A stretch of 64,000 nt of DNA, from positions 1,088,001 through 1,152,000 of the forward strand of contig CAVRKK010000002.1 of assembly GCA_963722385.1 (NCBI GenBank), written 5' to 3'. Source of the DNA: an uncultured bacterium. Lineage in GTDB: Bacteria > Babelota > Babeliae > Babelales > Babelaceae. The translations under genes were made by a program, and so were the position numbers. Under the pieces are notes generated by a model. It searched no databases, was not told the DNA's origin, and saw only the letters and a program-made list of their open reading frames with translations. This document shows positions 17,656-23,832 of this stretch, in pieces. The first letter of the stretch is position 1; every line of letters starts with the position of its first letter.

Positions 17656-18954
17656 TTAAATAATTATGGTGAGCAATTCGTGCCAGTTAGTAGTAAAGCA
17701 AGCTGATTTTTTGGCCTGGTGCATATTCCAAGGTCTTTTGAAGCCCTCGCTGGCAAATAAGAGTCTATTCCTTCCCCATTTATTATTGACGTTGTCGAGG
17801 GTACTCATAAAATCGTCATATTTTTTTCTTGTATCTTTAAGTGGGACGAATGTGCTCATTTGTAAACAATCCCGCGATACGAAATCTGCTATGATGACGC
17901 CCACTTTTTTATACGTTAAGCCAGGCTTAAAAATCTGCTTGAGGCAGTGGTGAGCAGCATTGACGAGGTCGGGTGTATAATCTGTTGCCAGCGGTAATTG
18001 GCAGTGGGTTGATGCAAAGTAATTTTTAGGATCATGATACTGATTGGTTAAGGCAAATACGGTTATATGCTGGGCAAGTGATTGTTGGGAGCGCAGTTTT
18101 GCTGCAGCGCAGGCAACATAATGAGCGAGTGCCTCTTTGGCATATGATAAGTCAGTTACTTTCTGGCCAAATGACCGTGATACCGTGATTGACTGCTTTG
18201 GCTCAGGGCAATCCTGGAGTGATAGGCATGGTTGTCCTCGTATTTCGAGCAAAGTTTTATGACCAACAATAGTGAGGTGCTTGCGAATCCATTTTTCATC
18301 AGCGTACTTAAAGTCACAGGCGCTCAAAATTTTATTGGTTTGTAATAATTTGGCATAGCGATAGCCGATGCCCCATACATCCCCAATATCAATTGATGAC
18401 AAAATCGTATCAATGGTAGGGTGATCCGTTATATCAAAAGCTCCTTTGTATTGAGGATTTTTCTTAGCGAGCCTATTGGCAATTTTGGCAAGCGTCTTGG
18501 TAGGGCCGATGCCGATAGATACGGGAATGCCGGTATGTTGTTGTACGATTGTTCTAAGAAAGTGTGCATAGCTAAGATAGTAATTATTATCTTTCTGAGA
18601 AATGCCAAGAATGGGGAAATGCGTGGGTGCGAAAAGAAATGCTTCGTCAACCGAATAGATTTCGATATCGGCGGCATGGAGGGCTAATGTTTGCATAACA
18701 CGCTGTGACATGTCACCATAGAGTGCAAAATTTGCCGAGTAAACGAGCACCTTATGCTTTTTCAGGAAGCTTTCCCATTCAAAGGTGGGTGCACCCATGG
18801 GGATACCAAGGGCTTTGGCTTCATTCGAGCGAGCGATGATACAGGCGTCATTGCTGCCAAGCACGATGACCGGCTTGTTGTGGAGCGTCGGGTTAAAAAC
18901 GCGTTCACAGGAGACGTAAAAGTTATTGCAGTCGACGAGGAAAAAGCGCTTCAT
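17656..18954 (-). CDS. umuC: Y-family DNA polymerase V catalytic subunit
   Basis: VDCNNFYVSCERVF, YSVDEAF, PTKTLAK.AN, C-terminal S..FTT.W.EL. Confidence 0.93.
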   Translation of the reverse strand: MKRFFLVDCNNFYVSCERVFNPTLHNKPVIVLGSNDACIIARSNEAKALGIPMGAPTFEWESFLKKHKVLVYSANFALYGDMSQRVMQTLALHAADIEIYSVDEAFLFAPTHFPILGISQKDNNYYLSYAHFLRTIVQQHTGIPVSIGIGPTKTLAKIANRLAKKNPQYKGAFDITDHPTIDTILSSIDIGDVWGIGYRYAKLLQTNKILSACDFKYADEKWIRKHLTIVGHKTLLEIRGQPCLSLQDCPEPKQSITVSRSFGQKVTDLSYAKEALAHYVACAAAKLRSQQSLAQHITVFALTNQYHDPKNYFASTHCQLPLATDYTPDLVNAAHHCLKQIFKPGLTYKKVGVIIADFVSRDCLQMSTFVPLKDTRKKYDDFMSTLDNVNNKWGRNRLLFASEGFKRPWNMHQAKKSACFTTNWHELLTIII

Positions 18955-18960
18955 GGTTGC

Positions 18961-19410
18961 TTATACCTGATGAATAACGTAGGTAACGACTCCCCAGACT
19001 TCAAAGTCCATAGCCTCGGTGATTTCAATAGGCTTGTATTCATCGCTGTCGGGCATGAGGTAGAGTTTGTCTGCTTCGCGTTTGATGCGCTTAACGGTCA
19101 ATTCATCATTAATACGCGCGATGACGATCCTGTTGTTTAAAACTGACAGAGACCGATCAACGACTAATATATCATTTGATAGGATGCCCGCCTTGACCAT
19201 CGAGTCACCCTTAACGCGTATGAAGAAGGTAGAGGTGGGGTGGCTTATGAGCAGCTCATTAAGGTCGAGCGATTTATCGATAAAGTTTTCAGCAGACGAG
19301 GGAAATCCGGCGGCGACGCACCCCTCAAGCAAGGGTATAAGCAATTTTTTTACGTGCTCAGGGTAGGTAAGGAGCTCAATTTCGTCAAAGGTTTGCTTGC
19401 TTTTTGTCAT
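18961..19410 (-). CDS. umuD: DNA polymerase V autoproteolytic subunit
   Basis: AGFPS cleavage site, GDSM serine, TVKR lysine. Confidence 0.93.
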   Translation of the reverse strand: MTKSKQTFDEIELLTYPEHVKKLLIPLLEGCVAAGFPSSAENFIDKSLDLNELLISHPTSTFFIRVKGDSMVKAGILSNDILVVDRSLSVLNNRIVIARINDELTVKRIKREADKLYLMPDSDEYKPIEITEAMDFEVWGVVTYVIHQV

Positions 19411-19975: not shown

Positions 19976-21157
19976 CTATTTAGCAAGCTTATTAATAAGA
20001 TCTTTTGCACTTACAAATGAAATTGTTAGATTTTCGTATCTTCTTTTAAATGAAGTATCAATATTACTTGCAACAACAAAGTTCTCTCCCTGAGGATAAA
20101 GACGACGAAAGGCGGTAAAATTTCTTACGAGATTGCCGGCAAATGCTGGCTTGGTGAGGTCAGAATCATCTAGCAAGCTGCTAAATTTACATTCTATAGC
20201 AGCAAGCGAGCCTGTTGTTCTATAGCGAAAAACAAAATCAATTTCATGCCCACGTTTATCACGCCAATAGTTAATAGCACGTGTTTGTAATTGCCCATGT
20301 ATTTCATTCAAAATACATTGTTCCCACATGAGCCCTAAATCTTCGACGCGTAATTCAGTTCTACCTTTAGCATAGGAAACAAATCCGGTATCAAATCCAT
20401 AGACTTTCGGTGCTAGAACAATCTCATTTGATTTATGGGTAGAATATGGTCTTATCACATGAACTACAAATGTTTCTTCAAGAACATGAAGATAGTTTGA
20501 GATTGTTTGCCTAGTCACCTCACAGAGAACAGCAAATCTTGTTGCTTCAAATATGCCACCACTATATGCCAATAATAATTCTAAAAACTTTTGAAAAGAC
20601 TGCCTTTTTCCAATGCTAAACATGTCTTGAATATCTTTGGCCCAATAAGCATCAATCCACTCTCGAAACTCGGCCTCTGGTAGCTCTTGTTTTACAAAAA
20701 AAGAAGGAAACCCACCAAATAAGAGTCGGTGGCGGAGGTTGTTATCGCCAAAAAGTTTCATCTCTTGGAGTAATAATGGCGTGAGCCAGATTTCTTTTTT
20801 GCGACCCGTTAACGTATCTTTAAATTTTTTGCTTGCACCTAATGTTGACGATCCCGTCGCAATTATTTTTATGCCAGGGTAATGGTCAGCCGCCAATTTT
20901 AAAAGCTCGGAAGGATTATCAAGGCGATGTATTTCATCAAGAACAATTGCTTGACCGATATAACTTTCTAAAAAACTTTCAGGGTCGCCTAATAATTGCC
21001 GTACTCGTGGTCGCTCGCAATCAAAGTATTTAACATCGGGAAGACTTTGACAAAGGCTTGTTTTGCCAATTCGCCGAACCCCCATAAGCCAGATAATATT
21101 TTTTTGTTGCCAGCCATCATATATCATTTTTTGCCAAAAAGGACGTTGTATAAGCAT
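19976..21157 (-). CDS. AAA_14/DUF4143 ATP-binding protein
   Basis: GVRRIGKT, LDEIH, ATGSS, PKVYGFDTG, EIDFV...IECK. Confidence 0.9.
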   Translation of the reverse strand: MLIQRPFWQKMIYDGWQQKNIIWLMGVRRIGKTSLCQSLPDVKYFDCERPRVRQLLGDPESFLESYIGQAIVLDEIHRLDNPSELLKLAADHYPGIKIIATGSSTLGASKKFKDTLTGRKKEIWLTPLLLQEMKLFGDNNLRHRLLFGGFPSFFVKQELPEAEFREWIDAYWAKDIQDMFSIGKRQSFQKFLELLLAYSGGIFEATRFAVLCEVTRQTISNYLHVLEETFVVHVIRPYSTHKSNEIVLAPKVYGFDTGFVSYAKGRTELRVEDLGLMWEQCILNEIHGQLQTRAINYWRDKRGHEIDFVFRYRTTGSLAAIECKFSSLLDDSDLTKPAFAGNLVRNFTAFRRLYPQGENFVVASNIDTSFKRRYENLTISFVSAKDLINKLAK

Positions 21158-21744
21158 TAATGCTCTCCAGAGGAAGGGAAAACCAAATGTTAAGTAGTTT
21201 TAACATATATCCCGCCCAAACGCAAGATGGACTTAACACTTGGTTTTAAACCAAAGCCCTGATGGACTTCAGACTACCTTTAAAACAGCGAAGCCCGCCT
21301 AAATCGCTGGCTCGCCCTTGTGGACCGGTCATACTTCAAACACTCGGCCTCAAAGATTAAGAAAACCTAATATATCTATAGCTTCTTTGTCAGCTTCACT
21401 GCTTTGTGCGAGAACTGGCGAACGTTTCCCAAATTTTGATAGTACAAAATTTTTCATATGGGAAAAAAGTTCGGGCCGGTATCTATCCTAGATAACTTTC
21501 TGACGTTGGAAAACGGTTAAGGAAACTATTTCACCGATTCCACAAGAAAAACTCAGAATTCGGATATAGCTTCCTTATGCCGAGTAAATTATTGCATATA
21601 CCAAATATATTTGGTAGTATAATATAAAATAGGATGCCTGGGCAGATACATAAGAAGGTAATACGAGTATGGAGGCATAAGTGCCGATCAGTGGAAAAGC
21701 AATGTGCAAACTCTTCGAGCGAGTGGGCTATAAAATTGTACCTG

Positions 21745-21868
21745 GCGGAAAAGGGAGCCATGTGAGCTATCCAAACCTAAAGGTTTTGGGCTTCCTGGGC
21801 TGAACCTCCATTGAGTGTTCATAGTATCTCCACAAGCGTCAACTTTCCCTGGCTCCCAGGGTAGATTA
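21745..21868 (-). ncRNA. TnpB-type omegaRNA/reRNA scaffold plus flank-derived guide
   Basis: TACCCTGGGAGCCAGGGAAAGTTGACGCTTGTGGAGAT...CAGGAAGCCC-hairpin-TAGCTCAC matches the tnpB right-end RNA pattern. Confidence 0.65.
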
Positions 21869-21983
21869 CTCACTAATCTAACATACCTTTAACTAAATGC
21901 AAGAGCATCTTAAGCTGCTCCTTGCTTAACTTGTAAGCCCTTTTATCCAGGACCTAAAGGAACCTGGTTTTACGGGCTATTCT
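21762..21983 (-). mobile_element. Non-autonomous IS200/IS605-family element (222 bp)
   Basis: Inserted 3' of TTTAT with no TSD. Subterminal hairpins share a CCTTTAGG core. Right end is ...TAGCTCAC. No transposase. Confidence 0.85.
21875..21902 (-). promoter_or_regulatory. Putative sigma70 promoter inside the MITE, pointing at the omegaRNA
   Basis: TTGCAT-N16-TAGATT with an extended -10 TGn. Confidence 0.5.
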
Positions 21984-22039
21984 ATAAAGCTTAAAAAGAA
22001 GCATTGTGAGACAATTGTTATTCCCAACCATAAGGAGGT

Positions 22040-22206
22040 TTTTTTTCGCTTTCTTCCTCTTCTTCACCCTGCTCCAAGCGAGCTCTTTTGGGCGATTCGC
22101 TTTCTTTCTCTTTCTCGCTCCTTGGTCGTTTGCCTTCCATCCCTATACTATAAGGGGTCTGCAGAAGACCTAAGCATGCTATACTCAGTTAAAAAATTTT
22201 CTTCAT
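22040..22206 (-). pseudogene. 5' remnant of a secreted effector (signal, ME, bipartite NLS-like)
   Basis: With two frameshifts it reads MKKIF..LSIACLGLLQTPYSIG-MEGKRPR.REREKESESPKRARLEQGEEEEE. Confidence 0.55.
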
Positions 22207-22398
22207 GGCTACCTTTATTATGTATTAGCAATTGATGTAAATATTATATAATTCGAAGTATGCATAAGTCAATATTTTCGTAACGTTATAGAAGATTTCA
22301 TTTACCGTAGAATTGATTGCAACACCAAGTATTTTACATCTTGGAAAGATAAATTTTCTCTATAAAATCAAGCTCGGGCTACGGGGACGCTTACGCAG

Positions 22399-22463
22399 CC
22401 GACTTCGCCAAGGCTTCCTACTTCGCTCCTTGAGCTTTGTAGGACAGGTCGCAGGACAGGTCG
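22399..22463. repeat. Nested REP-like palindromic units
   Basis: ccgacTTCGCcaagGCT containing cctacTTCGCTccttgAGCttt-gtagg-ACAGG, with tandem GGACAGGTCG. Confidence 0.55.
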
Positions 22464-22598
22464 AAGGGCCGCCGCCTTGCACCAACACCAATATGCGTAG
22501 TAGCGCATATTGTGTCCGTAGCAGCCTTTGGTAACAAGGGCGTAAAGCGGAGGGATTTGTTACTTACGTGCCTCATCTTCTTTACGTCTATGATGCTT

Positions 22599-22656
22599 TA
22601 ACCATGCGGGGCGCAGGCTTAGAGTTACCGCAATCTTCCTGACGGAAGATAGAAAG
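22599..22656 (+). repeat. 58-bp conserved element, copy 2
   Basis: First 17 nt are identical to copy 1. The last 27 nt have 5 differences. Confidence 0.8.
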
Positions 22657-22938
22657 CGATATTAAATTTTTATCATGGAGCGTAGCCTACATGATAAATG
22701 GCGTAAGTTATCGTACGCTTTTGCGTACGATAACGATAACTACTTACCAAGCCTATAAGCATTAAGTATAACGCTTTGGGATTGCTAAGGGACGATGTCC
22801 CTTAGCCGCTAGCCGCGCAGGCGATTCAGTTTAATTCAATTCAATTTTATTCAATATTGTCTGCAAATTTAAGAATCGCCTACCCTTGAAAGAACTACGG
22901 TAAAAATACTACGCTACCCTGATATTAGAGGGTAAGTA

Positions 22939-23832
22939 ATGAGATTACATGTCATGAACGCCAAGATAGGCGATATTGGCTACCTGGATAAACAGGGTTA
23001 TATTTATGAGCCTAAATTAGATGGCTATCGCGCCCTCTGCTACGTTGACGGCGATCTAACGTTTATGTCGAGAAACGACAAAAATCTTACCGCTGCCTAT
23101 CCTGAACTACTGCACTTTCGCCAGAATATACATGCGCACTCAGCAATCTTGGATGGCGAAATCGTTGCTTATGATCAACAGGGCAACCCCAACTTCGCTT
23201 TGCTCCAGCAAGGCAAACAGGCCTCGTATGTTGTTTTTGATATCTTAATGAAGGATGACGCATCACTTATTTCAAAACCCTTATTAGAACGCAAAGCCAT
23301 TCTATCTTCAACGGTCGTTGACGGTGAAGGTATTGAAAAAATATTTTATACCACCAAAGGACATGCCCTATGGGATGAAATAAAAAAAAGGAAAATAGAA
23401 GGGGTGATGGCTAAGAAAGCCAACGGCTTGTATTACCCCGATAAAAGAATCGATACATGGGTAAAAATTAAACTGGTTAATACGATTGATTGCGTTATTA
23501 TAGGCTACCTGGCTGGCAAAAGAGTAATAGCTTCGCTCGCATTGGGGCTCTATGATGAGGTAGGAAACCTCGTATATATAGGCAATGTTGGCACTGGTTT
23601 TGCTGAACAGATGACAACAGAGCTTGCTAGCATGCTTAAAAATATCACCGTAACCAGTCTTAGCGTAAAGAACGAAGCAGTTCTTCCGAGGAATATTATA
23701 TTAGTCAAACCAGTATTGGTCGCCGAAATCAAATACCTTGAAATGACGCCTTACGGCATGTTGCGAGCATCAGTCTTCTTGAGGCTCAGGAATGACAAAT
23801 TACCCAATGAATGCACCTTTCTCAACCAATAA
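22939..23832 (+). CDS. ligD: ATP-dependent DNA ligase (LigD ligase domain only)
   Basis: YEPKLDGYR, LDGEIV, FDIL, EGVMAK, WVKIK, GNVGTGF, LRLR.DK. No POL or PE domain. Confidence 0.9.
   Translation: MRLHVMNAKIGDIGYLDKQGYIYEPKLDGYRALCYVDGDLTFMSRNDKNLTAAYPELLHFRQNIHAHSAILDGEIVAYDQQGNPNFALLQQGKQASYVVFDILMKDDASLISKPLLERKAILSSTVVDGEGIEKIFYTTKGHALWDEIKKRKIEGVMAKKANGLYYPDKRIDTWVKIKLVNTIDCVIIGYLAGKRVIASLALGLYDEVGNLVYIGNVGTGFAEQMTTELASMLKNITVTSLSVKNEAVLPRNIILVKPVLVAEIKYLEMTPYGMLRASVFLRLRNDKLPNECTFLNQ

Follow-up and report, generated by a model that had tools for sequence, protein, structure and literature searches.

The portions of Meers et al. (bioRxiv 10.1101/2023.03.14.532601) drawn on here report that PATEs often encode omegaRNAs, which are acted on in trans by the TnpB of other elements. 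TnpB also works with an omegaRNA in trans in E. coli, according to the legend of Fig. S10 of a second preprint (bioRxiv 10.1101/2023.11.20.567912). Processed scaffolds of 79-466 nt are listed in the relevant section of PMC10278001 (106 nt for AmaTnpB), and an ISDra2 scaffold shortened so that stem 1 comes first is described as active in that of PMC10097598. PATEs with omegaRNAs used in trans are already known, and the mini-element described here is a compact and clean example of them.

The window (the whole stretch of 64,000 nucleotides analysed) lies on contig C2 of genome G000, a 1.6-Mb assembly in 2 contigs that is 93% complete. It carries a protein-free IS605-group mini-element of exactly 222 bp at 21762-21983 on the minus strand, within a hicA gene. 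The mini-element is a non-autonomous member of the IS200/IS605 family (a PATE), with subterminal hairpins at both ends and without terminal inverted repeats. Its parts and its immediate surroundings are the following:

21762..21983, minus strand: whole mini-element (PATE/MITE), no protein gene; delimited by copies and empty-site homologs
21984..21988, minus strand: target motif TTTAT (core TTAT) in host DNA; from comparison of left ends
21936..21983, minus strand: left end with subterminal hairpin, of a type shared with full-length elements L023, L025 and L028
21899..21925, minus strand: second hairpin, overlapping the -35 box; from folding
21875..21902, minus strand: predicted sigma-70-type promoter TTGCAT-16-TAGATT with TG extension (-35-like TTGCAT at 21902-21897, then 16 nt, TAGATT at 21880-21875); from a genome-trained model
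21762..21864, minus strand: omegaRNA scaffold of 103 nt, holding stem 1, stem 2, stem 3, the right-end hairpin and a pseudoknot; from homology to the last tnpB codons and right end
21769..21791, minus strand: right-end hairpin whose loop, UUUA, spans -20 to -17; the TCAC end comes next
21742..21761, minus strand: flank, the would-be guide, antisense to hicA codons 21-27
21681..21761, plus strand: 5' part of hicA, 27 codons (PF07927, E 0.0015, below cut-off)
21984..22037, plus strand: middle part of hicA, 18 codons, cut at 22037; from comparison with the paralog C2:242703-242906
21592..21620, plus strand: predicted hicA promoter TTGCAT-17-TAGTAT, overlapping a palindrome (score 13.6)

The original prediction of a 222-bp, protein-free element with IS605-type ends holds: all of the parts it named were found where it had placed them, and the hairpins and ends are common to full-length tnpB elements. 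Folding of the whole element alone was not significant (z -1.5), and one pair of the right-end hairpin is broken in the window copy. The second hairpin folds better on the top strand of the element in 4/4 copies and may possibly act as an insulator or terminator.

Full-length counterparts of the mini-element were identified in metagenomes, where an exact 23-base scan recovered nine loci: five with a full tnpB, one with a tnpB that runs off the contig, one protein-free, and two in which the 23-base motif lies at a contig end. The full-length elements (L023, L025, L028, L029 and L031) have the left-end hairpin, the TTAT flank and the TCAC end of the mini-element. They encode a protein of ordinary TnpB type (NF040570, 344.6 bits; NF038281, 414 bits against a cut-off of 425). 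The last 103 nt of the mini-element match the 3' ends of these elements, and the homology to tnpB begins a few codons past the last RuvC motif, at the first bases of the scaffold, and runs to the end. Judged from these alignments, the mini-element is a left end joined by a short spacer to the 3' end of tnpB and the right end. L023, the pair L025/L029 and the pair L028/L031 also share with it the scaffold and the location of a predicted promoter past the left end, which in their case precedes the gene; unlike the mini-element, they carry a small ORF plus tnpB, and their promoter sequence is different. The small ORF is leaderless and overlaps the tnpB start (L025:990-1172, L028:200-375, L023:1300-1430); it perhaps encodes a DNA-binding regulator.

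No direct parent with the exact promoter sequence was found among the relatives searched. DNA searches gave matches in 2/61 genomes, the second of which was hicA, and in 3/261 genomes, namely G000, the related genome G066 and one 23-bp piece. Protein searches gave TnpB matches in 18/41 and 3/4 genomes; among the loci taken from part of these, only a remnant in G000 (L085) and, weakly, L051 (E 0.084) matched the element profile. A search with the RNA model gave matches in 4/151 genomes, among them L134, which has a full tnpB and the same terminal hairpin with a different stem 1.

The original prediction had also named a TnpB-type RNA scaffold, which is borne out by the homology to the 3' end of tnpB, by covariation and by an ISDra2-like layout. 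An RNA model built from 7 sequences gave 14 matches in 21 loci. In the alignment of these matches, which leans to nested stems, 91.3% of cells were paired and 25 of 31 pairs showed two-sided change; 0 of 500 shuffles reached as high a pairing, and slid controls gave 26-45%. The pseudoknot, which is not in the model, has 89% of cells paired and two-sided change in 2/4 pairs. The compensatory changes sit well inside the scaffold. Stem 1 and the pseudoknot with the 3' end are present, the loop of stem 1 pairing with bases -3 to -6. UUUA occupies -20 to -17 in the terminal hairpin, which lies within 10 nt of the guide. The proposed scan with omegaRNA models gave no relevant match: Rfam yielded two irrelevant snoRNA matches, far below the gathering score, in 21400-22400 of the window, and 0 matches in 7 loci. 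This is weak evidence, because scaffolds are reported to be very diverse in the part of PMC10278001 that treats them.

Several other protein-free sequences were seen in the course of these searches. L135:1501-1595 (plus strand, G176) and L133:1501-1599 (plus strand, G055) are orphan omegaRNA-like pieces without tnpB, with compensatory changes in stem 1 and the pseudoknot. L135 has a promoter-like motif (score 11.2) 5 nt ahead of the scaffold; the ORF upstream of the L133 piece we take to be ribosomal protein L35-like. Other protein-free elements with the same ends are L027:2400-2854 (minus strand), L094/L120 (the same element, in a viral contig) and L036:2117-2640 (plus strand). Their order is left end, hairpin, promoter-like motif (score 15.0 in L027), about 150 nt of conserved, structured-looking sequence and omegaRNA. 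The ~150-nt sequence had no Rfam match, and one of 37 matches of the L027-type motif in viral contigs is this element. L027-type elements are possibly more novel than the 222-bp mini-element.

A plain consensus promoter scan returned 0 sites in the mini-element. A second model, seeded with TTG + TAnnnT and derived from 190 divergent upstream regions in G000 (upper quartile 11.7), scored the motif of the window copy at 12.4 and those of three other copies at 12.0, 11.7 and 9.7. Scores as high arose in 0, 0, 2 and 4 of 100 shuffles, respectively, and 0.4% of 3000 random positions reached at least 9.7. The motif thus recurs 8-10 nt upstream of the scaffold in 4/6 copies; the other two fail, one with 2.1 (15-nt spacer) and one with 0.3 (-35 box deleted). 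Among the four copies 11/14 promoter columns are invariant against 0/14 in the spacer, a partly circular count in that the columns were picked by the motif, and one that covers only two subfamilies. The promoter named in the original prediction is supported as a promoter-like, fixed-place motif under the genome-trained model, against a blank consensus scan and the loss of parts in two of six copies.

In the full-length elements the promoter between the left end and the first gene scores 10.6-13.5, and the ATG lies 6-7 nt downstream of the -10 box. Applying this spacing to the mini-element places the predicted transcription start at ~21867, that is, near 21867-21868 and 3-7 nt ahead of stem 1. 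The -10 box may alternatively derive from the last codons of tnpB, with a spacing that differs by 3-5 nt from that in the parents. Whether the promoter had been kept or gained was left undecided in the original prediction; its position fits the former, and the predicted promoter was probably kept from the tnpB promoter of the parent. The argument is one of position and not of sequence, because no parent with this exact promoter was found. In G000, pieces resembling the promoter and second hairpin, with the scaffold absent or disrupted, occur at C1:178627-178672 and C2:231784-231889; they are possibly decayed copies or the source of the promoter.

An nhmmer profile built from four copies gave 26 matches in G000 at E<=10; five are near-full (E 4e-70 to 2e-37) and include all four copies used to build the profile:

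C2:1109762-987, C2:206210-430 and C2:1263710-929: near-full copies, the first being that of the window
C1:279923-280105: near-full copy without right-end hairpin
C2:427981-428165: near-full copy with damaged left end

Several fragments accompany them. Copies are 73-91% identical in pairwise comparison and occupy unrelated sites. One further copy, 94% identical over 199 aligned bases, is present in G066, which belongs to the same family and another genus; there a 23-nt deletion takes out the -35 box. The search for other copies proposed with the original prediction was thus positive, with E-values far from chance. In sequencing run X1 a right end occurs with a flank that is absent from G000. 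Because the copies are dispersed, and given the G066 copy and the X1 flank, we infer that the family has probably moved repeatedly and recently. A pattern scan across genome contigs gave five matches, three of which were rejected as chance matches in coding DNA, and the left-end pattern had 0 matches in viral contigs.

The insertion itself can be read from relatives. A degenerate empty-site pattern matched 6/261 genomes, and all six sites are an uninterrupted hicA followed by hicB. No bases are repeated at the insertion point in these genes, and the boundaries of the element and the absence of a target duplication, as originally proposed, are fixed by the continuity of hicA at the site. The contigs of 4 of the 9 sequencing runs showed no joint across the mini-element, no contig spanning the stretch and no empty allele. 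The predicted TTTAT motif was confirmed in its TTAT part, which forms the constant left flank, and not in its fifth base, which is T, A, C or G over 16 left ends; for 13 of these 16 the search pattern already contained TTAT. TTAT is the TAM of ISDge10, and TTTAT is given as that of GstTnpB2 in the relevant section of Meers et al. (bioRxiv 10.1101/2023.03.14.532601). By analogy, the motif beside the mini-element may also serve as a TAM.

The insertion brings a stop into the hicA frame at 21801-21803. With the element removed, the frame matches the paralog C2:242703-242906 over 45 codons, up to 22037, where unrelated DNA takes over; the final ~22 codons are missing, as is hicB. Left of 22037 the sequence differs in a contig of run X2, so this loss is a deletion separate from the insertion. 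The claim that excision restores the hicA frame is therefore half right: the two halves are in frame, but HicA homology ends after 45 codons, and on the sequence at hand excision would give no whole toxin. An origin of this deletion as a scar of TnpB-induced repair was considered and rejected, as it lies 53 bp away and on the motif side; the edits made by ISDge10 are found at 13-23 bp from the TAM and reportedly on its guide side. Several other features flank the locus. A charged, low-complexity ORF fragment (22018-22160, minus strand) meets the truncated hicA tail-to-tail at 22037. A second dispersed repeat of ~230-370 bp at 22460-22850, with long matches at ~25 places in the genome (77-89% identity), is probably another miniature element. 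An ATP-dependent DNA ligase (PF01068, PF04679) lies at 22939-23832 (plus strand), and a presumably umuDC-like pair at 17656-19410 (minus strand).

Mobility and guide function would both require partners in trans. G000 has seven matches to the TnpB C-terminal family, including two intact 328-aa frames with all three RuvC motifs. The elements with intact TnpB have a TTTAC flank (3/3 left ends seen), a TTCAG end and another scaffold; the RNA model did not match the one such element searched, and the resident TnpB is 29% identical over 119 aa to the parent family. The parent family itself was found in G000 only as remnants: C2:993774-993985 has the right end of the mini-element and 42 codons of tnpB, 63% identical over 41 aa to L023. 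At C2:586600-587120 a related left end is joined to a disrupted start of tnpB. The latter lies in a nested region (C2:585930-587120, L002) that also contains the last codons of a tnpA-like frame, and a copy of the 328-aa TnpB element that has suffered a deletion sits inside the disrupted tnpB start. No intact cognate tnpB was found in G000 at 93% completeness. The tnpA/tnpB genes with the same ends sought by the original prediction thus exist as metagenome tnpB elements and a remnant and not as an intact tnpB in G000, and its working trans-acting partner was not substantiated. Two open tnpA frames are present (NF033573, 146.6 bits, for the one scanned); the resident tnpA elements have hairpins similar but not identical to those of the mini-element, and other end motifs. 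Cross-mobilisation by a resident TnpA is plausible by analogy, because one TnpA excised several families in the G. stearothermophilus experiments described in part of Meers et al. (bioRxiv 10.1101/2023.03.14.532601).

The mini-element is likely to be a mini-transposon that arose by internal deletion of tnpB, kept its ends, predicted promoter and scaffold, and carries a guide that is idle in G000 without a cognate TnpB. The deletion would have spared both ends, the predicted promoter and the entire omegaRNA scaffold, and would have brought the promoter of the parent up to the scaffold. Firing 3-7 nt before stem 1, this promoter would yield an RNA of ~106 nt plus flank that needs no 5' processing. 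TnpA made elsewhere would move the element by peel-and-paste, and a cognate TnpB, if supplied, would be armed against the element's own empty site. While such a TnpB existed, the excised site could have been cut and the copy restored, the retention route set out in part of Meers et al. (bioRxiv 10.1101/2023.03.14.532601). The purpose would be self-retention and not control of hicA, whose role as insertion site would be incidental; with the decay of the cognate tnpB the guide would have fallen idle. A purely idle element leaves unexplained why promoter and scaffold are conserved without an intact cognate TnpB, unless the loss was recent.

A passive remnant, in which the scaffold persists through its overlap with the right end and through youth while the promoter motif is silent and makes no RNA, is an unlikely alternative. 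It would account for the damaged promoter in 2/6 copies, the broken hairpin pair of the window copy, the several fragments and the blank consensus scan. Against it stand the compensatory changes well inside the scaffold and, less strongly than it looks, the contrast of 11/14 invariant promoter columns with 0/14 spacer columns in four copies 73-91% alike. About as unlikely is a processing-free guide cassette, a speculative reading in which selection would hold the promoter so that the RNA starts at stem 1. The cassette would outlive its tnpB, cross genera and serve as a lasting store of guides, or as a decoy, by which an incoming cognate TnpB is hijacked and, in this copy, aimed at incoming hicAB. 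Such a cassette would be the natural counterpart of the engineered trimmed omegaRNA.

That the guide acts in trans now, with a resident or unassembled TnpB cutting empty sites or incoming hicA alleles, is decidedly improbable. The two intact TnpB frames, the incomplete assembly and the use by TnpB of an omegaRNA given in trans, as in the cited part of bioRxiv 10.1101/2023.11.20.567912, speak for it, but the resident TnpBs follow TTTAC and differ in scaffold and sequence. The original prediction that intact hicA would be cut was not upheld: the intact paralog has TCAT in place of TTAT, and G000 has no other site with TTAT and a 12-nt guide match (<=1 mismatch). One-base changes of the TAM abolished cutting by GstTnpB2 in the assays covered by the consulted section of Meers et al. 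(bioRxiv 10.1101/2023.03.14.532601). The hicA sites of the six relatives keep TTTAT, with 2, 3, 3, 3, 4 and 4 mismatches in 16 guide bases. The G006 allele, with 2 mismatches in the first 16, is the most favourable to this reading, the other five arguing against it; to judge from these counts, an incoming hicA allele would offer no more than a partial target. The least probable reading, by a very low estimate, is a host-useful mobile promoter or antisense RNA that silences hicA or drives an AAA/DUF4143 gene 600 bp downstream. The geometry is indeed antisense, as originally proposed, with the guide flank opposite hicA codons 21-27, the AAA/DUF4143 ORF (19976-21157) is on the same, minus strand, and no terminator-like site was seen on that strand at 21550-21760. 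However, the insertion already puts a stop into this hicA, which is also truncated, and other copies flank unrelated genes. Antisense action on hicA has nothing to regulate, because with or without the element the gene is incomplete and lacks hicB.

None of these results points to control of a toxin-antitoxin gene. The mini-element provides a naturally minimal scaffold, of 103 nt, for a family of TTAT-type TnpBs with full-length members identified, and a simple test case for whether the promoter of a PATE produces guides that need no processing. If cassettes of this kind do hijack incoming TnpBs, they would be parasites of guide-RNA systems that act without a resident nuclease.

Neither the mini-element family nor a PATE promoter at the scaffold start was found in the literature searched, which was mainly open-access main text. 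The H. hydrogeniformans PATE-like element of ~271 nt described in part of PMC7290912 resembles the mini-element in its left-end hairpin, the last 58 nt of tnpB and the whole right end; it differs as a single copy with only 28 nt of left end, and the word 'promoter' is absent from the main text of that paper. The PATE-like elements of G. stearothermophilus in the cited portions of Meers et al. (bioRxiv 10.1101/2023.03.14.532601), which discuss no internal promoter at the scaffold start, likewise have both ends, an omegaRNA and no protein gene, need TnpA and TnpB in trans, and use TTTAT as do ISGst2 and TnpB2. The G. stearothermophilus genome holds intact cognate TnpBs, whereas that of the mini-element holds only remnants. 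From the ISDra2 omegaRNA, as presented in the relevant part of PMC10097598, the mini-element differs in scaffold length (103 nt vs 116), in motif (TTAT vs TTGAT) and in having no tnpB in cis. It shares with ISDra2 a 5' stem whose loop pairs with -3 to -6 (here GAGC with GCUC), a central stem with hairpin, and a terminal hairpin with UUUA at -20 to -17.
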